Shown piece after piece: positions 8,874 to 41,846 of a DNA stretch of 64,000 nt (its first letter is position 1; each line of letters starts with the position of its first letter). The notes under the pieces are model-generated. The model did no database searches and had not been told where the DNA came from. It saw only the letters and a program-made list of their open reading frames with translations. This DNA comes from Bacteroidia bacterium (lineage in GTDB: Bacteria; Bacteroidota; Bacteroidia; CAIKAF01), in contig JAUHWY010000001.1 in assembly GCA_030427255.1 (NCBI GenBank), positions 48,141 through 112,140 on the forward strand, given 5' to 3'. The translations under genes and the position numbers were made by a program.

Positions 8874-9557
8874 ATGGCCACGCAAGCGGAGGAGAATTAT
8901 TTAAAGGCAATTTTTAAGTTATCCGGGGCATTAGAACGAAGTGTTTCTACCAATGCTTTGGCCGATGCTTTAGAAACCAAAGCTTCTTCGGTTACCGACA
9001 TGGTCAAAAAGCTTTCCGATAAGAAATGGGTGAATTACCAACCATACCAAGGGGTAACCCTTTCTAAAAAGGGGAAGAAAATGGCCATTCAGGTCATCCG
9101 AAAGCATAGGTTATGGGAAGTGTTTTTGGTAAATCAATTGCATTTTAGGTGGGACGAAATTCATGAGATTGCCGAACAACTGGAGCATATTCAATCCGAT
9201 AAACTTATTGATCGGCTAGATCAGTTTCTGGGTTTCCCCCAGTTTGATCCGCATGGAGATCCTATTCCTACTGCCGACGGAAAGATTCGCCACCATAAAG
9301 ACGAAACGCTCAAAGACATGAACCCGGGTGATGTTTGCGAGGTTGTTGGCGTTAAAGCCCACGAAGCTGATTTTTTGCAATACCTGGATGGCATGAACTT
9401 AATTCCCGGCGTATCGGTGGAGGTGAAAAAAAGGTATGCCTATGACCAAAGTTTGGTGATTGCGGTAGATCAAGGCACTGATATTATGGTTAGCAGTACG
9501 GTCAGTCGTCAACTTCTTGTGCGTAAAAAAAGCCAAAGGGCTTTAGCCAACCCTTAA
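8874..9557 (+). CDS. DtxR/MntR family metal-dependent transcriptional regulator with a C-terminal FeoA-like domain
   Basis: Winged-helix N-terminus, metal-binding helix (HRLWEVFL...HEIAEQLEH), SH3-like tail. Confidence 0.85.
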   Translation: MATQAEENYLKAIFKLSGALERSVSTNALADALETKASSVTDMVKKLSDKKWVNYQPYQGVTLSKKGKKMAIQVIRKHRLWEVFLVNQLHFRWDEIHEIAEQLEHIQSDKLIDRLDQFLGFPQFDPHGDPIPTADGKIRHHKDETLKDMNPGDVCEVVGVKAHEADFLQYLDGMNLIPGVSVEVKKRYAYDQSLVIAVDQGTDIMVSSTVSRQLLVRKKSQRALANP

Positions 9558-31253: not shown

Positions 31254-31339
31254 TCCCTAATTTCTTTGTTTGAAAGGACAGCATTTTTTGCTGTCCTTTT
31301 TTTTTGTCAAGTTTTGAAGCATGAGACCGATGGTTTGTG

Positions 31340-31665
31340 CCTACTGAGACAGTTGATACGTTGCGTTTTCAAGACGAAGTCCCCGACCGAAGCGTCAGGG
31401 AAGCAGTCCCTGACCGAAGCGTCAGGGAAGCAGTCCCTGACCCAAGCGTCAGGGAAGCAGTCCCTGACCGAAGCGTCAGGGGTTTAAGGCGCAGGCAAAT
31501 AGAAAGGCCTCTGACGCTTCGGTCAGGACAGGCCGGAGTTTACTAGTTGTAAATGAGGACCCTGAGATTTGCCCATAACGCAGACCCTGGCGTTCCTGTC
31601 AGGGTTTATAATCCCGACCGCAGCGTCAGGGCAGGATTGCCGTCAGAATAGCATCGCATCAACAG
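31340..31665. repeat. REP/BIME-like composite cluster with a 4-copy 27-bp tandem array (GACCGAAGCGTCAGGGAAGCAGTCCCT, 31385-31483)
   Basis: Tandem units seen directly. The 3' half (31520-31660) is homologous to 51840-51990, with a shared ...CAGAATAGC terminus. Confidence 0.6.
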
Positions 31666-32892: not shown

Positions 32893-32980
32893 GGTGAGGT
32901 GGGTGAGTGGCTTAAACCAGCAGTTTGCTAAACTGCCGTACTCGAACAGGGTACCGGGGGTTCGAATCCCCCCCTCACCG
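32893..32980 (+). tRNA. tRNA-Ser (anticodon GCT), class II with a long variable arm
   Basis: Acceptor GGTGAGG/CCTCACC, anticodon stem GCAGT/ACTGC with loop TTGCTAA, T-arm GGGGG-TTCGAAT-CCCCC, discriminator G. Confidence 0.7.
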
Positions 32981-32987
32981 CAGCACT

Positions 32988-33062
32988 CGGGGTGTAGCGT
33001 AGCCCGGTTATCGCGCCTGCTTTGGGAGCAGGAGGTCGCAAGTTCGAATCTTGCCACCCCGA
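32988..33062 (+). tRNA. tRNA-Pro (anticodon TGG)
   Basis: Acceptor CGGGGTG/CACCCCG, anticodon stem CCTGC/GCAGG with loop TTTGGGA, T-arm GCAAG-TTCGAAT-CTTGC. Confidence 0.85.
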
Positions 33063-33068
33063 CTTTTA

Positions 33069-33104
33069 CAAGGGTTGTGGTTTTACCATAACCCTTGTTT
33101 TTTT
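33069..33104 (+). terminator. Terminator-like hairpin between tRNA-Pro and tRNA-Arg
   Basis: CAAGGGTTGTGG-TTTT-CCATAACCCTTG followed by T7. Confidence 0.45.
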
Positions 33105-33111
33105 GAGCCAA

Positions 33112-33185
33112 GGTCCCATAGCTCAGCTGGATAGAGCAACTGCCTTCTAAGCAGTAGGTCTCAGGTTCGAATCCTGATGGGACTA
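33112..33185 (+). tRNA. tRNA-Arg (anticodon TCT)
   Basis: Acceptor GGTCCCA/TGGGACT, D-arm GCTC/GAGC, anticodon stem ACTGC/GCAGT with loop CTTCTAA, T-arm TCAGG-TTCGAAT-CCTGA. Confidence 0.9.
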
Positions 33186-33443
33186 CTTTTGTTTTCTGTA
33201 AATTGCTGATTTACAGGTATTGGGAAACTTGCCTTTCTGATTTGTAGACACATTTGTAGACACATTTTCGGGAATTGCTCCAATTTGCGCTACTTGCTGC
33301 CGGCTCGTGTTGCTCTTTTTTATGGTGTCGGTTTAGTTGGCTACCGGCATCCAATCGGTTTTCCCTTGTCGGGTGCATACTCGGTGCCGGTCGCTATTTC
33401 TCCCTACTTCTTCTGTAATGTAATCTTTATGGAGGTAGGCTAT

Positions 33444-34454
33444 TCAATTGCAAAGTCCTTTTATCATTTCGTAAGCATCAGCGAATCCTAGCTCTCCAGC
33501 TTTACTCCAGTCCCAACAAGCTCCGTTTTTGTCTCCGAGATTGTATTTTGAGACACCTCTGTTGAAATAAGCATCTTGATACCCAGGGTCTAGTTCTATA
33601 GCCTTGTTATAATCTGCTATTGCTCCTCTGGAGTCTTCGAGCCTCTCCTTTGCCGCACCTCTGTTGTGATAAGCTTCTTTATACCCAGGGTCTAGTTCTA
33701 TTGCCTTATTACAGTCTGAAATAGCTCCTCTATAGTCTCCGAGATTGTACTTTGACGCACCTCTGTTGTAATAAGCTTTTTTATACCCAGGGTCAAGTTC
33801 TATTGCCTTGTTATAATCTGCTATTGCTCCTTTATAATCTCCGAGGCTTTCCTTTGCCGTACCTCTCATGAAATAAGCGTTTTCATGCCCAGGGTCTAGC
33901 TCTATTGCCTTATTACCGTCTGAAATAGCTCCTCTATAGTCTCCGAGAGTGTACTTTGCTATACCTCTGCTGTAATAAGCGGCTACATAGGAAGGGTTTA
34001 GCTCTATAGCCTTGTTAAAGTCTGCTATTGCTCCTCTGGAGTCTCCAAGTTTGCCCTTTGCCCCACCTCTTATGAAATAAGCGTCTACATACAAAGGGGC
34101 ACGCTCTATTGCCTTATTACAGTCTGAAATAGCTCCTCTATAGTCTCCGAGATTGTACTTTGACGCACCTCTGTGTTCATAAGCTTCTAAATACCCAGGG
34201 TCTAGTTCTATAGCCTTGTTATAATCTGCTATTGCTCCTCTAAAGTCTTCAAGCCTCTCCTTTGCCCTACCTCTTATGAAATAAGCACCTTTATCCCCAG
34301 GGTCTAGTTCTATAGCCTTGTTAAAGTCTGCTATTGCTCCTCTATTGTCTCCGAGATTGTACTTTGCCAGACCTCTGTCAAGGTATTCTTCCGCAGTCTG
34401 ACTAAATACATTGCTACTCCAAAAAAGCAAAAAAATAAAAAATACGTTTTTCAT
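33444..34454 (-). CDS. Secreted TPR-repeat protein (nine near-identical 34-aa TPR units)
   Basis: Signal peptide and a repeated ...GAIADYNKAIELDPGY...AYFxRG... unit. The DNA is internally repetitive. Confidence 0.8.
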   Translation of the reverse strand: MKNVFFIFLLFWSSNVFSQTAEEYLDRGLAKYNLGDNRGAIADFNKAIELDPGDKGAYFIRGRAKERLEDFRGAIADYNKAIELDPGYLEAYEHRGASKYNLGDYRGAISDCNKAIERAPLYVDAYFIRGGAKGKLGDSRGAIADFNKAIELNPSYVAAYYSRGIAKYTLGDYRGAISDGNKAIELDPGHENAYFMRGTAKESLGDYKGAIADYNKAIELDPGYKKAYYNRGASKYNLGDYRGAISDCNKAIELDPGYKEAYHNRGAAKERLEDSRGAIADYNKAIELDPGYQDAYFNRGVSKYNLGDKNGACWDWSKAGELGFADAYEMIKGLCN

Positions 34455-34539
34455 TTTAGTTCGTTATTGGTTAAAAACTCCTTTAGGTTATTTGCAATAG
34501 GCAGTTCCGCTCAATTATTGATGCCATGTCGTTTACTTT

Positions 34540-34845
34540 TTATGGATTGGCTGCTTCTTGTTTGTGTACTTGAAAAACCACTTCCCCCGGCCATGTCTGC
34601 GTCGGGGTATTGTCGCTTTCGGCTGCCGGTGGGGGTGTTACTAAGACCAAAAGCTTAACCATGATTTCAAGGTATGCCTTGGGGTTCGTTTCTGCCAAGG
34701 TATTGAGGCTTGCCTCCATTTTTTCGCCTTGCCCCTGCAAAGCTTGGCCGATTAACTTTCGGGCTTGCTCGGTTAGCTTGTTGGGGACTCCTTTTCGGGT
34801 TCCGCTTTTTCCTGCCTTGGTTCCGGTGTCGGAGTTGAATTGCAC
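34540..34845 (-). CDS. Hypothetical protein (101 aa), island cargo
   Basis: ORF only; no motif. Confidence 0.3.
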   Translation of the reverse strand: MQFNSDTGTKAGKSGTRKGVPNKLTEQARKLIGQALQGQGEKMEASLNTLAETNPKAYLEIMVKLLVLVTPPPAAESDNTPTQTWPGEVVFQVHKQEAANP

Positions 34846-35021
34846 TTTCCGTTACTTTGGTTTGTGTGGGTGTACGTTACCGGGAATGGGTTGTTTCAAA
34901 ATAAATAGCCCAATGATTGACTTTTCCCCTCTACTTGAACGGTGAATAACGCTCATTCAATCTTTAGGCTTGGCCTGCCAAAAATAGGAAATTCCTAGAT
35001 TTAATTAAATGCTTTGGAGCT

Positions 35022-35453
35022 ATGGATAAATTAACAGACGATTGGGTTCAGCTTACAGACGGTCGGGAACCGATTTACTTTTACCTTGTCGAGGAACATG
35101 TTACTACCTTTGGAAAAGATGAGGGTAGGAATGAGCCCATTAGTTACGCTAAAGAATTTAATGGACCCAATTTGCGAAAGTGCAAAGAAGATGCAGAAGC
35201 ATACTATTGGGAAAGGTTAGAGGGCTTAGAAAAGGCCGGTTCCTACTTTTTGCCATTTGCAAGCCATTCAAATTTTGAGTTTGGCAAAAACGCTGCATTT
35301 TCTATTTATCTATCTTTAGTTGAGTACTATGATGAAGACGATTTTTTCCTTCACACTATTTTGGGGGATGATGAAGAGGAAATGGTCGAGGCTAGGGAAG
35401 CAGAAGCGTACATACTTAGCGAAAGGGAGGATGAAGAGGATGAAGAGTTCTAG
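35022..35453 (+). CDS. Highly acidic 143-aa protein with a poly-Asp/Glu C-terminal tail (ends EREDEEDEEF); the only plus-strand island gene
   Basis: ORF flanked by 22-bp direct repeats CGGTGAATAACGCTCATTCAAT (34940-34961 and 35515-35536). Confidence 0.5.
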   Translation: MDKLTDDWVQLTDGREPIYFYLVEEHVTTFGKDEGRNEPISYAKEFNGPNLRKCKEDAEAYYWERLEGLEKAGSYFLPFASHSNFEFGKNAAFSIYLSLVEYYDEDDFFLHTILGDDEEEMVEAREAEAYILSEREDEEDEEF

Positions 35454-35531
35454 CTTTTTTCTAAAATAGCACATAGGTAGGTCCGGTTTTTGGTTGTTTC
35501 CCCCCACTAGTAAGCGGTGAATAACGCTCAT

Positions 35532-36482
35532 TCAATAGCTCGAAGAGCTCGCCCAATGGTTGGCCATTTTCGCATCCTTTAGGCTTGGGAAACAAATCGC
35601 TCGGAGCTCGTTTCTTATTTCGTTTGATGTTTGCGCCCAATGCACTAAGCCGGCATCCTGCAAACGGTTGTTTAGCTTGGTGCGCTCCCTTCTGAATTGC
35701 TGTGGGTTTTCCCGTGAAAGGGAAATGAAATACCGGGGGTTGGTCCATTCTTTGTTCCATGTGGCCACCTCGGACCGGGCCTCTTTTTCTTGCGGCACAA
35801 ATAACACCTCGTTTAGGCTTTCCTCTATCTTATGCCTCAACTTAGATAAACGGCTCGGGTTGGCTAAGTCGGCAAAGGTTGAAATACCCATTTGGTTTAG
35901 TTGTCTCATTTTGGAATAATGCCTTTCCCATCGAATGAGCTTTTCCGGGTCCGTATTTTGCACCTCCATCGCTGTTTCTATTTCCTTGGTGTACTGCCTA
36001 CCTTTTGCGTAAAGCTTGTCTCCAAACTCGCTTTTGGTGGCCACTACTCCAAACTTCCGATCGCTTAACATCGCCTCAAATGGTGTGGATTTATGGAGGA
36101 ACGCTCCTTTCAAGATTTCTTGGGCCCTGTGGCTTGTCCGCACGTTCGCCCCTGCTTCTAAGTTCTCTAATTGGATTTCGTGCGGTGAAACGCCCAAATG
36201 GTCGGAAATGGAAATGAGGCCTTCCAAAAGTTGTCGAAAATCCAAGGGCTTCCAGTTCGCCCCACCTTGTTGGTGCTTATGTATGGAGCCGGAAAGGATT
36301 ATTCTTGTGGGGCTGCCGGCAGCAGGGAAAAAGCCCTTGGCCTTCATGGAGCCAAAATAATACTCCTGCCAAGGGCTTATTTCGCCTGTGCGCTCATTCA
36401 CCACCATTTGCCATTCTATGGCCTCGCTTGCTTCTTTAGGAAACGCTAGGGGGTGAATACTAGCTTTTAGAAAGTCTATCAC
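35532..36482 (-). CDS. Putative replication initiation protein, Rep_trans-like (weak)
   Basis: 316 aa; the segment GDKLYAKGRQYTKE...LIRWERHYSK loosely resembles the RIYNKKQE...HLWRVEIELK region of rolling-circle Rep_trans initiators. Context is int/xis/regulator. Confidence 0.35.
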   Translation of the reverse strand: MIDFLKASIHPLAFPKEASEAIEWQMVVNERTGEISPWQEYYFGSMKAKGFFPAAGSPTRIILSGSIHKHQQGGANWKPLDFRQLLEGLISISDHLGVSPHEIQLENLEAGANVRTSHRAQEILKGAFLHKSTPFEAMLSDRKFGVVATKSEFGDKLYAKGRQYTKEIETAMEVQNTDPEKLIRWERHYSKMRQLNQMGISTFADLANPSRLSKLRHKIEESLNEVLFVPQEKEARSEVATWNKEWTNPRYFISLSRENPQQFRRERTKLNNRLQDAGLVHWAQTSNEIRNELRAICFPSLKDAKMANHWASSSSY

Positions 36483-36514
36483 TATCTTTGATTGCTAGTC
36501 GGTTCAAACGGCTA

Positions 36515-36874
36515 TCAAATTGCACCGAAGAGGCCCATTTGTTGGGCCTTTTCTTTTTTATGGCCGTAGTGCTCAACCGGCAAACCGGTTTCTCGCTCCG
36601 TGTCGATTTTGTTCTCTACACGAACAAGCCCTTCTTTTTTGAGCTTGTTTAGGACGCTGCATAAAGAGGACTCTCTAATTTTGAGAACTTCTTGCAATTT
36701 TAACCTTGAAAACGTGGCTTCCGGGAAAGTCCCTAGGAATTGCAAAATTCTCTCTTTATGCTTTAGGTGCGCAAGCTCTCTCGCATAGGTACGGTAAGCT
36801 TCTAGGGAGTTCCGGTGCATCCTGTGGTTTGGGTGCTTAATTCCCCTACCTAGGGTTTGGTTATCGCTCTTCAT
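36515..36874 (-). CDS. Winged-helix DNA-binding transcriptional regulator (119 aa)
   Basis: wHTH-like segment ...RILQFLGTFPEATFSRLKLQEVLKIRESSLCSVLNKLKKEGLVRV...; 4-nt overlap with the xis-like gene. Confidence 0.5.
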   Translation of the reverse strand: MKSDNQTLGRGIKHPNHRMHRNSLEAYRTYARELAHLKHKERILQFLGTFPEATFSRLKLQEVLKIRESSLCSVLNKLKKEGLVRVENKIDTERETGLPVEHYGHKKEKAQQMGLFGAI

Positions 36875-37140
36875 CGCTTGGCCCTCCCTTTTAATTGTTG
36901 TTCAATCTCGGAGCGCAAGAATAGGACCCTTTTCCCCATCCGGTAGCCTTTAATTACTCCCTGCTTTTCCAGTTTGTTAATGGTCGGGAAACTGATTTTG
37001 AATTGTGCCCGGACTTGGTCCCGGGTCAACCACTTTTCAGTTTGTTGGCCGCTTTCGCTTTGGCCTTGTTCTTTGATGTGCTCGTGAATTTCGAGAACGG
37101 CGTTCTCAATAACTCGCAAACGGTTTTCTAGGTTTTGCAT
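36871..37140 (-). CDS. xis: Excisionase/MerR-type HTH DNA-binding protein (Xis-like)
   Basis: LTRDQVRAQFKISFPTINKLEKQGVIKGYRMGKRVLFLRSEI matches the excisionase HTH_17 pattern. Confidence 0.6.
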   Translation of the reverse strand: MQNLENRLRVIENAVLEIHEHIKEQGQSESGQQTEKWLTRDQVRAQFKISFPTINKLEKQGVIKGYRMGKRVLFLRSEIEQQLKGRAKR

Positions 37141-37184
37141 AATTTAAAAATTGATTTAATGCAAAGCTATTACCGCTCAAAGTC

Positions 37185-37237
37185 AGAAACTTAGGAAACT
37201 TAGGGAGGAAAACTTAGGAAACTTAGGAAACTTAGGT
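37185..37237. repeat. Five tandem iteron-like 9-10-bp repeats, (G)AAACTTAGG
   Basis: Seen directly; located between the orf315 stop and the xis start. Confidence 0.65.
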
Positions 37238-37247
37238 TTTGTTTTAT

Positions 37248-38195
37248 TTAGCTAGATAATAGATTGTTTATCTTTATCAAATAGCCCTTATTTTTCTTTA
37301 GTGGTGAAGTTTCTAGTTTTCGCAAAAGTCTAATAACGGTTCTCTCCGTTACGCCCTTACCGCCACCCTCGTAGTTTATTAAATACTCGCCTATTCTGTC
37401 TAAAGCTGCATTATCTTTAACTAAGTCAGAAACTATACCTGCATTACTCTTAATTCCGTCCAATTTTTTAAGGCCTGTTTTCTCTGTCATAAAATCATAC
37501 CCATTCAATTTCAATTCATTTTTGAAATCATAACCAGTAATCCCACAGAACAAAATGCAAAGGTTTTCCTTGCTCCGGCCGCCCCTCAACCATTCAAAAA
37601 ACTTTTCCCATAATCCATCATTTGATTGAGTTTCCGGCTTAGAATCTTCCCTTCCTTCTTTGTCGGGGTCAACCTCATTTGGTCTAGGTACAACTTCCTT
37701 GGGTTCATTATCGGGGGTCCACCTACTAATTGTTATGCCTTGGTCACTACTATTCAAACTATTTTGTAATTCAAAGAATTGCTCCCATTGGTATTGTTGA
37801 CCAAAGCCAAGGGTTTTCTCTAATTCTTTGAGCCTAGCATGGAATAGTTCAAAGTCAACCGCCCTATCATGGCTCCCAAAAAAACTAATGTACTTTTGGG
37901 CCCAATCCTTTTGCCTTTGAATGGCTTTTTGTACCAGTCTCAACCCTTTTTCATTATTGTTTCCATACTTCCCAATTGTGGCCTCTATTTCCTCTCCAAG
38001 CTTCCTTTGCTTTTCGATTATTTCAGCCTCCCAATCGGTGTTCTTATAAATGGGGAGTATCATTTCTTGCCACCAATCTTTGTTGACCCTAGCCACTTTA
38101 AACGGAGCCCGGGTCGGTTTATAATCCTCGGGGTTTAATAGAATGGTCCAACCTTTAGGGGGCCTTTTTAATTTTAACGGTTCCTTCCTTTTCAT
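37248..38195 (-). CDS. Hypothetical island protein (315 aa), translationally coupled to the integrase
   Basis: 4-nt overlap with the int stop; no recognisable domain. Confidence 0.5.
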   Translation of the reverse strand: MKRKEPLKLKRPPKGWTILLNPEDYKPTRAPFKVARVNKDWWQEMILPIYKNTDWEAEIIEKQRKLGEEIEATIGKYGNNNEKGLRLVQKAIQRQKDWAQKYISFFGSHDRAVDFELFHARLKELEKTLGFGQQYQWEQFFELQNSLNSSDQGITISRWTPDNEPKEVVPRPNEVDPDKEGREDSKPETQSNDGLWEKFFEWLRGGRSKENLCILFCGITGYDFKNELKLNGYDFMTEKTGLKKLDGIKSNAGIVSDLVKDNAALDRIGEYLINYEGGGKGVTERTVIRLLRKLETSPLKKNKGYLIKINNLLSS

Positions 38196-39487
38196 ACCTG
38201 TGCGCTTAATTCCTTGTACTTCTCTTCAAAAGTCGCAAGTATCATTTCGCTATGCTCCCTAGTGGTCATTTTGATGTAATTAAGAAACACCTTCTCCGAA
38301 CTGTGCCCGGTTATGGCCATAATACTAATGGCCGGCACTCCCATTTTGTATAAGTTGGTGGCAAAGGATCTCCTAGCTGTATGGGAACTGATAAAGTGAA
38401 ACTTAGGCCTTTTTATTTCCTCAACTTCAAAGCCTCTATTCTTGGTTGCCTCTACAGTTTCTACAATACCGGCAAGCTTCCCAATTTCCTTTATAAGGCT
38501 GTTTAGGCTTTGGTCAGGCATGTATGGCAATTCAAAGTCGTACTTTTCTAGGATTTTCTTGGTAGGTGAAAACAACGGAATTTCCACTTCGCTATCGGTC
38601 TTTTGCGCCTTTATTACTATAAACTTACTGTCTATGATGTGCTTTTTCTTAACTCGCTTAAAGTCGGAAATGCGTAAACCAGTCCAACAACCAAAAAGGA
38701 AAAGGTCCCGGGCTTTCTCGTATCTTGGCAAATGCGAAAGATTGAGGCCTTCCAGTTTCTTTAATTCATCCAAGGAAAGAAACACGCTATGAACCTTCTC
38801 CTTTATTACCTTGAACTTTTTGTCTTTGAAAATTTCGTTCTTTGAAATTCCCTCTTCGTATGCTGCTCGAAGTATTGCCTTAATGTTTTTGATGTGTTTC
38901 CCTATGTTATTTGGAGTAAACCTTTTCCCGGTGTCCCTGCCTAGTCTATCCCTGCCTTTACAATAAGCTACAAAAGAGGCGTACCAAGCCATGTCGAAGT
39001 CCTCAAAACCAATGTTCGGTTGATACTCTTCTAAAAGCTTTTTCGTTTGCTGATAAGAGTTCACAACCGAATTTTGACTTAATGGCTTGCCGGCAGCACT
39101 AAGCCTTAGTTTGTGCCCTTCCATGAAATGGTCCACAAATGCAAAAAAGCTCTTGGGCGCAAGCTTTGATCCGGGTGCTTGTTCTTGTTTTTTAGGGTTT
39201 AGGAGCTCTCTAAACTCGTCAAGGGTTGGCTCTATGCCTAATTGCCCAAAGGGCTTGTAAAGTTCGGCTATTGCTTCCTTATAAGCTTCTAATCGCTCGT
39301 TTTTGTAAAATGCGTCAGGGTCGCTCCTTCTTACCTTTTGCTGTTTCTCGTTCCAGTCCTTTACCAAAACGGACTCTCCTACATTCTTGGTAAGCTTTTT
39401 ATAATCCCAACGAATTACGGCTTGTATTGACGCTTCATCGCCCTTGGTTCTGGGCCTCAAATAAAAGTGCACGGTCATAACTATCAA
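38192..39487 (-). CDS. int: Tyrosine-type site-specific recombinase/integrase
   Basis: C-terminal catalytic region ...HTARRSFATNLYKMGVPAISIMAITGHSSEKVFLNYIK... (R..H..R..Y) and an N-terminal SAM-like domain. Confidence 0.9.
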   Translation of the reverse strand: MIVMTVHFYLRPRTKGDEASIQAVIRWDYKKLTKNVGESVLVKDWNEKQQKVRRSDPDAFYKNERLEAYKEAIAELYKPFGQLGIEPTLDEFRELLNPKKQEQAPGSKLAPKSFFAFVDHFMEGHKLRLSAAGKPLSQNSVVNSYQQTKKLLEEYQPNIGFEDFDMAWYASFVAYCKGRDRLGRDTGKRFTPNNIGKHIKNIKAILRAAYEEGISKNEIFKDKKFKVIKEKVHSVFLSLDELKKLEGLNLSHLPRYEKARDLFLFGCWTGLRISDFKRVKKKHIIDSKFIVIKAQKTDSEVEIPLFSPTKKILEKYDFELPYMPDQSLNSLIKEIGKLAGIVETVEATKNRGFEVEEIKRPKFHFISSHTARRSFATNLYKMGVPAISIMAITGHSSEKVFLNYIKMTTREHSEMILATFEEKYKELSAQV

Positions 39488-39904
39488 ATTGCATAGCTAA
39501 GTTAGCACATTTGAAATTTGTGGACACATTTGTGGACATATTTTCTTTATTTCATTTTACTTTAAAGAGTCTTACTTAATCGATAATCCACTAATTACAA
39601 GGGGTGCAAAACTAAAAGGCCTTTATTCTCAATCCTTTTAAAATTGAAAATACGAATCCTGATGGGATCACTAAGAAAGTCCACCGAAAGCCTTTAATGT
39701 TCCAAACCTTGGGAACTAGAGCATGCTTGCATGTTCATAGTTCCTAAGGTTTGGAACGATTTGTTGCCAAAGGCAGCAAATGGGCTTTCGGAATTCGGAG
39801 CATACAGGATCAGGCACAACTCCTGATGAGAATAGAGCGGTCGGGATTTTGGAAAGTAGCCGCAATCTCTCCCTCATTTCAAAAAGACTTAGAGAATTTT
39901 AAAT

Positions 39905-40154: not shown

Positions 40155-41846
40155 TTAAGGACAAACTCTAGTAATCTGAATCGATCCGTGGCCTGTGTTC
40201 CAGGAATTTAGGTTTTGAATGCTTCCATTAAAGGAGGACGATCCATTGTATTGTCCGTTGGAAGTAGCCACGTTGGAAGCACCGGAAGCAACAAAAGAGC
40301 CGCCGCCACCGCCGCCGCCGCCGTTGGAGCCGCCACCGCCGCCGCTGTATCCGCCGCCGCCGGCACCTCCGGTGGAGCTGCAGCCACCGGCTCCGCCAAA
40401 GCCTCCTACGGCTTGTGAACCGGGTCCTCCTTGACTTCCATTTACATAGGCTTTTCCAAAGAAGTTATCCGAGCCGTAATTGTACACGGTATTGCCATCG
40501 GTCTGATAGCCCCCGGCGCCGCCTCCGCGGGTGCCGTTGCCGCCACCATTTCCGGAACTACCGCCCCACATGCCTTGGTTGTAGCCGTAATCGGACCAAA
40601 CATTGTTGTTGTCGTTGCAAGTATTGTACCCGTTATTGCCCCTTATTAGCGTGGTGCCATCGCTTCGGCAACCGTTTTGGGCAGAACGACCATCTCCGCC
40701 GCCGCCGCCGGCCACAATAATGGGCTGGCCATTGCTCACCACATAGCTGCCACCGCCGCCGCTTCCGTTATTGTCCACTCCGGTGGCTCCCTGTTGGCCT
40801 ACTACCATTTGCAGGTTTTGACCGGCACTAAGACTAAAATCTGCGGCCAAAACTACACCTCGACCGGGATTAGCACCTCCGCCGGAGGCGCCGCGCACGG
40901 TAATTCGATACACCCCACTGCTGGGAACGGACCAAGTTTGGATGCCATTATTTACAGTGACTACACCGCTTCCATAGCTGCTGTTGCATTGGCTTTGGCT
41001 GGGGCCGTTTTGGCCGCTTGCGCCGCAGGGGGTAAAGCTTTGGTTCACCGCAATGCAAGAAGTTACCTGAACCATGGAGTCCAAGGTGCTGGAACAGCCA
41101 TCGGCGTCGGTAATGGTTAAACTTGCCTGATAGGTGCCTGTATTGGAATAGCTCACCGAGGGGCTTTGCAGGTTGGAGGAAGCCGGAGTACCGTTTTGAA
41201 AGGTCCAAGCATAGGTAGCTCCATTTTGGATGGCACTAAAGGTGGAAGGAGCCTGAGTGCTTATAGGATAAGGGCTAATGGTGTAACTGGAGTCGGGATT
41301 GCTAACATCTACCAACAAAGAGGCGGTTGATGAGCTTCCACAGGCATTTACTGCCACCACCTGAAGGGTTCGCTGGCCTTCGACGCCTGAAAAATTAACC
41401 GTTATGGAGTTAGATCCCTGACCGCTAACCAAGGTGTCTTGTCCGGGAATGGTCCACTGATACGAAGTAGCCCCTTGAACCGGAGCTACAGAAAAGCTTT
41501 TGTTGGCATCGGCGCGGCAAACGTGGCTTTGGCCTTGGATGGAGGAAGGCGTAGGAGGCGGGTTTTGGCAATCGCATACGATGGCTTTCCAACCGGTGGA
41601 AAAATAGGCCTCAATGCAGTCGGTATCGGTATTGTAAATTTGTAGTCCAAAGGGAGGCGTTGGAAGTGCGTTTCTTTGCTGGGTGTTCAATCTTGAAAGT
41701 AGAAATCCACCTTGGGTTGATTGCAGGTCAAGCACTGCGGCCGAGTCGGGTGCCTGATTGGATCCAATGGTTACTCCCTGGGCCATGCCGGAAATGGAGG
41801 AAAAAAGAACGAAAGAAAAAATACAAATACGTAGTGAGTAGTTCAT
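40155..41846 (-). CDS. Secreted protein with Ig/PKD-like repeats and a C-terminal glycine-rich domain
   Basis: Signal peptide and long GGGGxGG runs in the last ~250 aa. Assignment to the Gly-rich domain family that also occurs in ALK/LTK is from memory. Confidence 0.55.
   Translation of the reverse strand: MNYSLRICIFSFVLFSSISGMAQGVTIGSNQAPDSAAVLDLQSTQGGFLLSRLNTQQRNALPTPPFGLQIYNTDTDCIEAYFSTGWKAIVCDCQNPPPTPSSIQGQSHVCRADANKSFSVAPVQGATSYQWTIPGQDTLVSGQGSNSITVNFSGVEGQRTLQVVAVNACGSSSTASLLVDVSNPDSSYTISPYPISTQAPSTFSAIQNGATYAWTFQNGTPASSNLQSPSVSYSNTGTYQASLTITDADGCSSTLDSMVQVTSCIAVNQSFTPCGASGQNGPSQSQCNSSYGSGVVTVNNGIQTWSVPSSGVYRITVRGASGGGANPGRGVVLAADFSLSAGQNLQMVVGQQGATGVDNNGSGGGGSYVVSNGQPIIVAGGGGGDGRSAQNGCRSDGTTLIRGNNGYNTCNDNNNVWSDYGYNQGMWGGSSGNGGGNGTRGGGAGGYQTDGNTVYNYGSDNFFGKAYVNGSQGGPGSQAVGGFGGAGGCSSTGGAGGGGYSGGGGGSNGGGGGGGGSFVASGASNVATSNGQYNGSSSFNGSIQNLNSWNTGHGSIQITRVCP

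Follow-up and report, generated by a model that had tools for sequence, protein, structure and literature searches.

A 6.5-kb integrative element in a Flavobacteriales tRNA-Arg gene encodes a putative Rep_trans-fold nickase

Genes and sites at the tRNA-Arg locus

The stretch of DNA analyzed here (the window, 64 kb) is from an uncultured Flavobacteriales bacterium. ARAGORN identified tRNA-Ser, tRNA-Pro, and then tRNA-Arg(TCT), in that order, at the locus, and the following features lie between the last of these and a second copy of part of its sequence (window coordinates):

33112..33186, +, tRNA-Arg(TCT), the integration target (ARAGORN; Rfam 71.9 bits)
33168..33182, +, attL core, a 15-nt identity block (exact repeat; shuffles 0/100)
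33240..33269, +, P' arm repeats, two copies of ATTTGTAGACAC, candidate arm-type integrase binding sites (repeat family D5)
33375..34548, -, cargo insertion with the gene for a secreted ~9xTPR protein (ORF 33444-34454, 336 aa)
34540..34845, -, orf101, a conserved small basic protein (weak phrog_11043 match only)
34935..34961, -, post-rep motif, native copy, ATTGAATGAGCGTTATTCACCG|TTCAA, including 22-nt repeat copy 1 (34940-34961)
34962..35514, +, 553-nt cassette with acidic orf143 (35022-35453, +), between 22-nt direct repeats
35515..35536, -, 22-nt repeat copy 2, overlapping the orf316 stop codon
35532..36482, -, orf316, a putative Rep_trans-fold tyrosine nickase (RCR initiator and/or relaxase)
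36515..36874, -, wHTH119, a small winged-helix protein of 119 aa (weak MarR-type matches)
36871..37140, -, Xis-like HTH_17 protein of 89 aa, a putative recombination directionality factor/regulator
37186..37236, -, five tandem 9-bp iterons, 5 x AAACTTAGG (CCTAAGTTT on the gene strand)
37248..38195, -, orf315, overlapping the int stop codon by 4 nt
38192..39487, -, tyrosine integrase of the Bacteroidota type with an arm-binding N-domain (Pfam, PHROG)
39516..39545, +, P arm repeats, two copies of ATTTGTGGACA(C/T)
39653..39667, +, attR core; the original tRNA 3' end (TCAC), now displaced, comes after it
39668..39836, +, host flank outside the element, a ~164-nt highly structured unit (repeat D8)

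All of the open reading frames listed in an earlier note on this DNA are present where it placed them, and the xis-like gene, wHTH gene, iterons, acidic cassette, and secreted TPR protein that it described are real. The core genes are all co-directional. The integrase matches SAM_5 (8e-13), Phage_integrase (1e-11), and Arm-DNA-bind_5 (3e-4) in Pfam as well as phrog_1 (1e-28), and it contains the motifs GLRISD, HTARR, GH, and NYIK; gene callers place its start at 39478 (428 aa). The Xis-like protein matches HTH_17 (8e-5), the TIGR01764 excisionase model (4e-5), and phrog_66 (2e-5), all below the curated cutoffs. Its gene overlaps that of wHTH119 by 4 nt, and in the distant family loci L009 and L011 the equivalent place likewise holds an HTH_17 gene. 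For orf315, which the earlier note had left without a confident assignment, searches of Pfam, NCBIfam, PHROG, PADLOC, and the PDB gave no match either singly or as a family, and its sequence contains no Walker A motif. Profile searches of the island also found no phage structural or conjugation families, in line with the same note.

A 15-nt repeat bounds an element that is missing from related genomes

The sequence CGAATCCTGATGGGA occurs exactly twice in the 64-kb window, at 33168-33182 inside tRNA-Arg(TCT) and at 39653-39667, and none of 100 shuffles contained two matches to it, even with two mismatches allowed. The repeat had been described as the last 15 nt of the tRNA; its recurrence at 39653-39667 holds, but it extends from the T-loop to the acceptor stem and stops 3 to 4 nt short of the tRNA 3' end. 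The terminal bases of tRNA-Arg, from 33183 (CTAC...), are element-derived, since the attP of the relative L008 carries the same sequence to the right of the core: the tRNA ends in ...TGGGATCAC in the empty-site genomes L014 and L013 and in ...TGGGACTAC in the window, the latter as in the L008 attP. The element comprises positions 33183-39667 (6485 bp) and lies at the 3' end of tRNA-Arg(TCT), which it has rebuilt with its own sequence. Just outside it, the end of the host-flank unit (39810-39834) repeats the tRNA-Arg T-arm/acceptor in degenerate form.

In L014 and L013, which are syntenic Flavobacteriales MAGs with flanks of 86 to 95% nucleotide identity, position 33182 is joined directly to 39653 through a single 15-nt core; tRNA-Arg is intact and the window's right flank follows directly. 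attP junctions joining both island ends are present in eight contigs of relatives from ENA, JGI, and Logan data, whose integrases are ~78% identical to that of the window element. Three are circular (L004, 4770 nt; L007, 5288 nt; L047, 4770 nt), with terminal overlaps of 141, 141, and 123 nt, respectively, and the ends are joined in the same way in L005, L008, L046, L048, and L049. A circular assembly can arise from tandem copies too. All circles come from relatives; neither a circular form nor an attP read of this exact element was seen. Of the checks that the earlier note had proposed, a search for an empty tRNA-Arg site succeeded in two related genomes and one for an excised circle in relatives, and its island in tRNA-Arg bounded by a 15-nt repeat is borne out by the exact repeat, the empty sites, and the attP junctions.

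In each attP contig, the arm-repeat motif lies to the left and to the right of the core, and TTGTGGACAC/GTGTCCAC recurs at each end of L002, a distant element. The topology is shared by distant family members, with L002 in tRNA-Cys (16-nt direct repeat) and L011 in tmRNA (17-nt direct repeat), and each of the three distant contexts sampled combines HTH_17, a small ORF, a Rep-like gene, and an integrase.

A conserved core carries strain-specific cargo

The conserved core consists of int, orf315, the five 9-bp iterons, the Xis-like HTH gene, the small wHTH protein, orf316, and orf101, and spans ~4.8 kb. Two parts, the TPR gene and the cassette with acidic orf143, are cargo specific to the strain. 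The TPR protein matches Pfam TPR_1 (4e-62) and phrog_7590 (6e-73), and its gene has a 102-nt tandem periodicity. The insertion that carries it is absent from L004, L005, L008, L047, and L049, all of which have orf101 and jump from 34549 to 33374. The 22-nt direct repeats flanking the orf143 cassette are identical at 22/22 positions (repeat D16), and degenerate similarity runs ~60 nt beyond them; L004, L005, L007, and L047 have one repeat copy and no cassette. The orf143 product has a pI of 4.16 and no family matches in profile searches.

The narrow family has no members in IMG/VR or INPHARED (cultured phages), and the wider family has a single weak match, in one uncultured 28-kb phage contig. 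The family is also absent from PLSDB plasmids, so autonomous plasmid-like maintenance is not documented.

orf316 resembles Rep_trans initiators in fold and residue pattern

The AlphaFold2 (AF2) model of orf316 (pLDDT 92.7) has significant PDB matches to Rep_trans initiators only, with Foldseek TM-scores of just 0.40 to 0.45. The viral proteins closest in structure are of the Inoviridae type, and the BFVD matches include one to an Inoviridae sp. protein. The invariant residues of orf316 fit the Rep_trans set D46, D142, R189-Y191-K193, and R212-E214 (PMC4797284) in order and spacing, and hhalign pairs YDKG with RIYNK and RfE with RVE, with weak sequence-level support (E = 0.019; probability, 2.4%). 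The candidate active site in the model would consist of Y158, the basic residues K156/K160/R184, and the acidic residues D3/E109/E186, the correspondence of D3 and E109 being based on order and spacing, not superposition. The Pfam Rep_trans model does not match orf316. We regard orf316 as a putative, highly diverged Rep_trans-fold tyrosine nickase, with nicking predicted from the modeled fold and residue pattern.

Directly after the rep stop codon, ATGARCGYTWTTCACCGTTCAA is found as a single copy in L002/L003, L004, L005, and L007. The L002/L003 Rep is just 50% identical, yet the motif is kept. A 17-mer of the motif has a chance expectation of 0.03 in the window. The sequence ATGAGCGTTATTCACCG/TTCAA is the best candidate for the Rep nick site (dso or oriT); the hairpin at the proposed site is weak (z = -1.6).

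A TAnnTTTG-like motif and the start of xis lie immediately downstream of the iterons. Their 9-nt period is kept with a different sequence in L008/L046, L045, and L002. Changes of iteron sequence go along with exchange of the wHTH core and of the C-terminus of orf315, while Rep stays ~98% identical; in L045, the central domain of wHTH119 is exchanged along with the iterons, and its termini and Rep are conserved. The orf315 C-terminal domain co-varies with iteron type, and with three or four types, wHTH and orf315 are inseparable on that basis. wHTH119 is a candidate iteron/origin specificity factor or regulator.

Proposed life cycle and alternative readings

Collectively, we consider it probable that this is an integrative element that excises via Int and Xis and replicates, or is mobilized, via a Rep_trans-fold nickase. 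The integrase and the Xis-like HTH_17 protein would recombine attL with attR to release a circle, the integrase probably binding the paired TTGTRGACAC arm repeats on either side of the core. The boundaries, the empty site, and the circles in relatives are observed for this step, and we infer what Int, Xis, and the arm sites contribute. On the circle, orf316 would nick a specific site and drive rolling-circle replication, and the same nick could double as an origin of transfer. The co-variation suggests that an element-specific factor, either the core of wHTH119 or the C-terminal domain of orf315, may bind the iterons in front of the xis-wHTH-rep operon and control expression or recognition of the origin. 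The stretch from rep to attP would serve as a cargo zone, here occupied by the cassette with acidic orf143 and the gene for the secreted TPR protein. Horizontal transfer could proceed by conjugative mobilization or phage packaging of RCR concatemers.

An integrative mobilizable element (IME), the alternative offered in the earlier note, is viable and overlaps with this life cycle rather than excluding it, but we hold it to be only a tentative possibility that orf316 is mainly a MOB_T-like relaxase. It would nick the post-rep motif as oriT, a single strand would leave through the T4SS of a co-resident Bacteroidota conjugative element, and circle replication would be incidental. In the ICESt3/Tn916/ICEBs1 group, the relaxases are proteins with the Rep_trans fold, and many small streptococcal IMEs contain little beyond a tyrosine integrase and such a relaxase (PMC5704250, PMC7563843). 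Int and xis are present here, T4SS genes are absent, and a conserved cis motif lies beside the nickase gene. However, MOB_T relaxases are described in Firmicutes only, and known Bacteroidetes IMEs use MobP (PMC5704250); neither a coupling protein nor a helper element was found, and several metagenomes repeatedly yielded closed circles lacking host flanks, which suggests that a free or concatemeric form is abundant.

We judge it unlikely that the element is a phage satellite (PICI-like or VEIME-like), with excision induced by a helper phage and Rep concatemers packaged in helper capsids. Its small size and its int, xis, and rep module integrating in a tRNA gene would suit a satellite; marine VEIMEs lack capsid genes and are found as concatemers in virions, and a subset, with plasmid-like genes for replication, integrates in Flavobacteria (PMC9618062). 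Both orf101 and the TPR protein match PHROG families lacking an assigned function, and the nearest viral structural matches are Inoviridae-type. Profile searches nevertheless detected no terS, portal, capsid, ppi/cpm-like, primase-helicase, or divergent repressor genes, and the phage database results above and the 4.8-kb core also argue against a satellite. Because the core genes are all co-directional, there is no divergent repressor switch. The satellite/PICI-like gene order proposed earlier is not upheld, and the element does not qualify as a PICI in size, regulators, primase, or packaging genes.

A defective or cryptic filamentous (inovirus-like) prophage replicating via a Rep_trans initiator is very improbable. 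Such initiators are known in Gram-negative filamentous phages (PMC4797284), and the BFVD match and the size, within the inovirus range, are compatible with this origin; yet there is no morphogenesis ATPase (orf315 lacks Walker A), genes for small hydrophobic coat proteins were not found, the conserved core has no space for a structural module, and the circular contigs show neither a Zot/pI-like ATPase nor coat proteins. Finally, a chance 15-nt match in ordinary conserved chromosome, favored by nothing more than the shortness of the repeat, is refuted by the precise absence of the interval from two syntenic genomes and the attP junctions and circles in relatives (eight contigs), and the shuffle test (0/100) also speaks against it.

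Comparison with known systems

Like PICIs and marine VEIMEs, the element is a site-specific island with int, an AlpA/Xis-like HTH, and a replication module but no structural genes, and VEIMEs likewise lack capsid genes and resemble RCR concatemers (PMC9618062). Unlike them, it lacks primase-helicase, terS, capsid-remodeling genes, and a divergent repressor and is less than half the usual PICI size.

Bacteroides NBU1 and NBU2 share the Bacteroidota-type tyrosine integrase, small size, and helper dependence for transfer (predicted for the window element). They integrate in the 3' end of a tRNA gene, as the window element does. In contrast to it, they carry a primase and are not known to have a Rep_trans-fold protein or an iteron array. 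Their relaxase is of the MobP type (PMC5704250).

Rep-Arvir of the temperate pleolipovirus SNJ2 (PMC13107129) is similar in that the virus integrates in a tRNA gene, the initiator is related to Rep_trans at the structural level only, an origin element lies downstream of rep, and a wHTH is involved. Rep-Arvir is archaeal, however, with a DUF7845 domain fused to the wHTH that is a separate gene here, and SNJ2 is a virus with structural genes.

With the pT181-family initiators RepC/RepD/RepDE and RepSTK1 (Rep_trans; PDB 4CWC, 4CWE, 4CIJ; PMC4797284), orf316 shares the [K/R]-x-Y-x-K tyrosine motif, the R-x-E strand, an acidic residue on an h-D/E-h-A/G-h-D/N strand, and an N-terminal acidic residue, all at similar spacing. 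It differs in its ~10% sequence identity without an HMM match, in having N107 for R140, E109 for D142, and N113 for D146, and in its C-terminal half, a different all-helical domain; its gene is on an integrative element rather than a free plasmid, and the candidate origin follows the gene instead of lying inside it.

Streptococcal IMEs such as IME_Sga2069_rpmE and IMESag-rpsI are also small, integrate at the 3' end of a conserved gene, and combine a tyrosine integrase, an excisionase, and one Rep_trans/MobT-type nickase, thought to serve maintenance and/or mobilization, with no T4SS genes (PMC5704250, PMC7563843). The window element differs from these in its Bacteroidota host (not Firmicutes), in a nickase with no PF02486 match that is recognizable by fold alone, in its separate conserved small wHTH protein and 9-bp iteron array, and in the targets of its family, which are tRNA or tmRNA genes.

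Boundaries of the element and its empty site

The genes for tRNA-Ser, tRNA-Pro and tRNA-Arg(TCT) form a cluster at 32893-33186 (ARAGORN), and the 15-mer CGAATCCTGATGGGA has exactly two copies in the 64-kb window, one at 33168-33182 within the 3' part of tRNA-Arg and one at 39653-39667. Two matches were found in 0 of 100 shuffles, with two mismatches permitted. The earlier note had described this repeat as the last 15 nt of the tRNA; the repeat is real and spans the T-loop to the acceptor stem, stopping 3 to 4 nt short of the 3' end. The island so delimited is 6485 bp long and has a GC content of 42.7%, versus 46.2% for the window. Two syntenic metagenome-assembled genomes, L013 (Flavobacteriales bacterium M30B58) and L014, were retrieved via a host gene adjoining the tRNA cluster. 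Both are 86 to 95% identical to the window in nucleotide sequence across the flanks, both have the tRNA-Ser/Pro/Arg cluster, and in both the site is empty: window position 33182 abuts 39653 directly, with a single core copy between, which is the unoccupied site that the earlier note had suggested looking for. After the end of the empty-site tRNA-Arg, ...CCTGATGGGATCAC, comes TAAGAAAGTCCACC..., the right flank of the window. The joined ends of a metagenomic relative (attP of L008) read ...GAGTCCTGATGGGACTACTTTT..., and this sequence, together with the empty-site tRNA end, shows that the element supplies CTAC... beyond the attL core and that TGGGATCAC at attR is the original 3' end of the host tRNA, now displaced. 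As read from the sequence, the acceptor stem has 7 bp with one G-U pair in both versions of tRNA-Arg, and the occupied-site tRNA scores 71.9 bits (Rfam). An Rfam scan gave nothing above threshold except tRNAs, and a scan with a sigma-70 promoter model, which is ill-suited to Bacteroidota, gave no excess over shuffles. The island is a discrete, precisely bounded integrative element in tRNA-Arg.

Circular forms in relatives

Exact and near matches to the island proteins in metagenomes led to circularly permuted contigs. Two of these (L004 and L007; ENA, k141) have exact 141-nt terminal overlaps that close them into circles of 4770 and 5288 nt, and a JGI contig (L047) closes into a 4770-nt circle through a 123-nt overlap. 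The junction joining both island ends is also present in L005, L008, L046, L048 and L049. The integrases of these relatives are about 78% identical to that of the window. The excised circle and junction that the earlier note had suggested looking for are thus seen in relatives and not for the window copy, so that a circular form is established for the family. A circular assembly could also come from tandem or concatemeric DNA.

Gene content, arm repeats and cargo

All ORFs named in the earlier note are present in the interval. On the circles, the order is attP, int, orf315, iterons, xis-like gene, wHTH gene, orf316 (rep), a conserved noncoding motif, orf101, arm repeats and attP, which makes up a conserved core of about 4.8 kb. 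The int, orf315, xis, wHTH, rep and orf101 genes all lie on the minus strand, with 4-nt overlaps between orf315 and int and between the wHTH and xis-like genes.

Proteins and arm repeats of the element.
Integrase, 431 aa, minus strand: Arm-DNA-bind_5, Phage_int_SAM_5 and Phage_integrase (Pfam), with PHROG matches; Bacteroidota type
xis-like protein, 89 aa, minus strand: weak HTH_17/excisionase match
wHTH119, 119 aa, minus strand: weak MarR-type winged-helix match
TPR protein, 336 aa: carries a signal peptide
orf143 protein, 143 aa: strongly acidic, pI 4.16, 39 D+E
33240-33269: paired arm repeats, ATTTGTAGACAC twice
39516-39545: paired arm repeats, ATTTGTGGACAC-type, twice

The integrase has the motifs GLRISD, HTARR, GH and NYIK and the R...HxxR...H...Y pattern, and its gene lies 166 to 175 nt away from the attR core. 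When all eight proteins were scanned against Pfam, NCBIfam, PHROGs and PADLOC, orf315, orf316, orf143 and orf101 received no assignment, and a PDB sequence search with profiles A1 (narrow orf316 family), A2 and A4 (orf315) gave no match. The paired arm repeats flank the core on either side in every attP, and their GTGGAC/GTCCAC motif recurs at both ends of a distant family member (L002); by inference, the integrase N-domain may bind them as arm-type sites.

The segment with the TPR gene (33375-34548) is missing from L004, L005, L008, L047 and L049. The TPR gene and the orf143 cassette are cargo, and both are missing from circular or attP-bearing relatives. In L007, a lipoprotein gene takes the place of orf101. 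Comparison by eye of the flanks of the TPR insertion revealed no repeat apart from a TGTCG microhomology. The TPR gene itself (33488-34399) is built of tandem 102-nt units with 70 to 82% DNA identity, which suggests a recent repeat expansion; in the identical Logan contig L001, the assembly breaks within this gene, and the Logan run ERR3428543 contains an identical contig.

A predicted Rep_trans-like fold and active site in orf316

Only three close clusters of orf316 were found among 5.8 billion proteins. A profile search of 1.84 billion representatives returned 1542 relatives at E<=1e-3, of which 587 also passed E<=1e-10, and the named sources so far are Flavobacteriales-type bacteria. For the 84 family members sampled, Pfam, NCBIfam and PHROG yielded nothing meaningful, the strongest match being that of one member to Rep_trans (E 0.0047), and orf316 had no match to the Pfam Rep_trans HMM (PF02486) at E<=1. 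An AF2 model built from 4 sequences (pLDDT 40) was discarded, and a 48-sequence alignment gave an AlphaFold model with a pLDDT of 92.7 and a pTM of 0.89. With this model, a Foldseek search of the PDB at E<=1e-3 returned two matches, both to Staphylococcus aureus RepDE (4CWE/4CWC; E 7e-5, probability 1.0, TM 0.40/0.45). The predicted structure contains the TBP-like catalytic-domain fold of Rep_trans proteins.

The active site of Rep_trans proteins comprises the catalytic Y191, R189 and K193, which are required for religation, and the metal ligands D46, D142 and E214, one per strand; R140, A144, D146 and R212 are also conserved (PMC4797284). In the orf316 family, the invariant or near-invariant residues are D3, S66, H68, N76, E109, G111, N113, K156, Y158, K160, R184 and E186, and K156-L-Y158-A-K160 is invariant in both alignments (84 and 48 sequences).

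Proposed correspondence between orf316 and Rep_trans residues.
orf316 D3 (MIDF): Rep_trans D46 (SFDA)
orf316 E109-x-G111-x-N113: Rep_trans D142-x-A144-x-D146
orf316 K156-x-Y158-x-K160: Rep_trans R189-x-Y191-x-K193
orf316 R184-x-E186: Rep_trans R212-x-E214

The spacings between these residues are similar (106/49/28 in orf316 versus 96/49/23 in RepC numbering), and D3, E109 and E186, which were matched to the metal ligands by order and spacing, are on separate predicted strands. In its default local mode, hhalign pairs YDKG of orf316 with RIYNK of RepD and RfE with RVE, a weak alignment (E 0.019); global and low-mact alignments to RepD were meaningless and were set aside. Based on the fold match, the residue mapping, the spacing and the hhalign pairing, we treat orf316 as a putative Rep_trans-fold tyrosine nickase, and we keep it out of PF02486 because it fails that HMM. 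The core interpretation in the earlier note, an integrative element bounded precisely within tRNA-Arg and equipped with a Rep_trans-like initiator, is right, the initiator being recognizable by its fold. What is new here is a putative structural assignment for a large unannotated Bacteroidota protein family, which would give a testable function to 1542 clusters at 50% identity that have no Pfam, NCBIfam or PHROG model. Known mobile elements of Bacteroidota carry other relaxases and primases, and the assignment would extend Rep_trans-type rolling-circle nickases to integrative elements of this phylum.

Iterons and their specificity

An array of five 9-bp iterons precedes both a TAGCTTTG (TAnnTTTG-like) motif and the start of xis. 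The 9-nt period is common to all relatives, and the iteron sequence varies.

Iteron sequences in the window and its relatives.
CCTAAGTTT: window, L004 and L007
TCTAARTYC: L008 and L046
AAAAACTCG: L045
AGTCGARRA: L002

The Rep N-terminus of L045 is about 98% identical to that of the window, while comparison of L045:2100-2840 with window 36515-37250 revealed that the wHTH central domain, the orf315 C-terminal domain and the iteron sequence are all replaced. The wHTH termini are conserved, including the N-terminal HPxH[RK]xHRNS motif. Iteron specificity therefore follows the wHTH protein and/or orf315, and not Rep. By analogy with the fused wHTH in the archaeal family Rep-Arvir (PMC13107129), wHTH119 is the more attractive candidate for the iteron reader. 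Iteron-type theta replicons have a Rep_3/RepA-type initiator beside their iterons; here iterons are present, and neither orf315 nor wHTH119 matches a Rep_3/RepA model.

A conserved motif after rep and the orf143 cassette

Directly 3' of the rep stop codon lies ATGARCGYTWTTCACCGTTCAA, which is kept in two distant family loci (L002 and L003) despite a Rep identity of 50% and DNA that otherwise barely aligns to the window. The motif is a candidate nick site, as a double-strand origin (dso) and/or oriT; its hairpin is weak (z -1.6). On the cassette-capture reading given below, a nick by orf316 within the post-rep sequence ATTGAATGAGCGTTATTCACCGTTCAAG would fall between CACCG and TTCAA. A perfect 22-nt direct repeat, ATTGAATGAGCGTTATTCACCG on the gene strand, brackets the orf143 cassette (34940-34961 and 35515-35536) and ends exactly at this CACCG/TTCAA boundary within the conserved motif. 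Degenerate similarity continues for about 60 nt beyond each copy (34891-34961 versus 35455-35536), so that the post-rep region is present in duplicate on either side of orf143. L004, L005, L007 and L047 have one 22-nt copy and are without the cassette. The cassette is present in the two integrated copies observed, those of the window and L050, and in none of the circular or attP contigs spanning the site.

The cassette may stem from Rep-driven strand transfer between a pair of origins, or else from recombination among variants of the element. The integrated-only distribution is what would be expected if Rep, by initiating and terminating between two origins, removes or inserts the cassette. 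A broader and rather improbable reading is that these elements are a widespread, undescribed Bacteroidota replicon type, in which a structurally cryptic nickase of the Rep_trans type acts together with 9-bp iterons and with a specificity subunit, the wHTH protein, that is separate and can be swapped, and the nick site after rep doubles as a site of cassette capture. If so, capture would be akin to that of genes by integrons or ISCR elements, with a rolling-circle initiator as its driver. An integron-like origin for the cassette was rejected, as it shows no attC-like structure (z -1.6) and int does not qualify as an integron integrase (TIGR02249 score 17 versus a cut-off of 265). The defined cis sites and the origin-adjacent cassette are new.

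The Logan contig L050 (SRR19514069, 1659 nt) extends from the TPR gene start across orf101 and the 22-nt site into the 5' part of orf143, which is fused directly to the int 5' region and followed by a different att-like core, GGAGTCCGATCAGTATC. It represents a decayed relative from which the entire rep/xis/orf315 block is deleted.

Exchange of the attP core

The integrases of L008 and L004 are 95.8% identical, and their attP cores differ. That of L008 is of the tRNA-Arg type (GAGTCCTGATGGGACTAC), whereas L004, L005, L007 and L046 to L049 have a tRNA-Cys-type core (GAGTCCGCTCGGGACCTC), which matches the 3' end of tRNA-Cys in L002. About 55 nt adjoining the core also differ between L008 and the tRNA-Cys-type contigs, and the two core types have GAGTCC-N4-GGGAC in common (regions compared: L008:240-460, L004:180-460, and L002:4440-4470 and 9000-9085). 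Near-identical integrases with different cores suggest that target switching proceeds via exchange of an attP segment of about 75 nt. This swapping of attP cores is new, and the family illustrates both tRNA target swapping and cargo pick-up.

Host DNA flanking the element

Directly after tRNA-Arg is a unit of about 164 nt (window 39653-39836) that ends in a degenerate second T-arm/acceptor copy (39810-39834). Its predicted fold has an energy of -84 kcal/mol (z -9.7), with compensatory changes in 7 of 56 predicted pairs across 5 copies. There is one copy in L014 (9300-9640) and three in tandem in L013 (8900-9640), each beginning ...TCCTGATGGGATCAC, and against Rfam the unit gave only a subthreshold match to Clostridiales-1 (35.6 bits, below the gathering score of 48). 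The unit may be a structured RNA cotranscribed with the tRNAs, or a gene-less, att-bounded remnant (CIME-like) offering extra att sites. Upstream of the tRNA cluster, two overlapping plus-strand ORFs at 31266-31546 encode tandem peptide repeats (SGKQSLTEA and REAVPDRSV by frame), which point to a short, intergenic tandem DNA repeat. To the right of the island, a 563-aa ORF (40155-41846) reaches a GC content of 61% versus 46% for the window and encodes a secreted product whose C-terminal half is of low complexity and rich in Gly, Asn and Ser; L013 and L014 are syntenic throughout this region.

The wider family

The three distant contexts examined have one module, consisting of an xis-like HTH gene (HTH_17 in the 4.5-kb contigs L009 and L010 and in L011), a small ORF, a Rep-like gene and a Bacteroidota-type integrase. 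L002 occupies tRNA-Cys(GCA), and its direct repeat measures 16 nt; L011 (Ornithobacterium rhinotracheale) occupies the 3' end of tmRNA, and its direct repeat measures 17 nt. In these two loci, whose targets are visible, the integrase gene is located at the far end from the RNA gene and is read toward it, as in the window. A scan of the genome contig collection with A1 found no relative, and tblastn of orf316 against phages (INPHARED) and plasmids (PLSDB) gave no match. Among the wider-family members used as queries, P0183 had no match in the collection search and P0163 had marginal matches only, to a C-terminal fragment on a Hymenobacter plasmid and to an uncultured 28-kb phage contig. The sole match of the wider family in the phage collection is MT835707.1:5506-6180 (28.6% identity over 217 aa, E 2e-11), on a 28-kb contig from human feces that is labeled "Bacteriophage sp." and has no annotation, which suggests that some members may sit on phage-like genomes.

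Comparison with known systems

The "PICI-like" label in the earlier note is not supported. Searches of Pfam, PHROGs and NCBIfam found no terS, ppi, cpm, rpp or capsid gene, the genes through which PICIs are packaged or take over capsids. There is no primase or helicase, the putative Rep_trans-fold nickase being present instead, and no divergent master repressor/activator is found beside int in the 4.8-kb, all-minus-strand core. Gene-poor elements can also travel by being packaged as concatemers, as VEIMEs are (PMC9618062); a route of this kind or a PICI-like satellite is, taken jointly, a doubtful account of the element. The narrow orf316 family and orf143 are absent from IMG/VR and orf316 is unmatched in INPHARED. 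An inovirus is unlikely, with no morphogenesis ATPase, no coat genes and only weak BFVD matches (TM 0.44 or less).

Like an integrative mobilizable element (IME), the island has its own integration/excision module and no mating-pore genes. No canonical Mob family is matched in the element, and the putative nickase and post-rep motif are the candidate relaxase and oriT. With its att core, arm repeats, iterons and candidate nick site, this compact 4.8-kb integrative replicon might be turned into integrating or shuttle vectors for Flavobacteriales that are hard to manipulate. The element resembles SNJ2, an integrated archaeal virus with a Rep_trans relative recognizable by structure alone (PMC13107129), and in its working it is closest to small IMEs of streptococci, in which a tyrosine integrase is accompanied by a Rep_trans/MobT protein (PMC5704250, PMC7563843).
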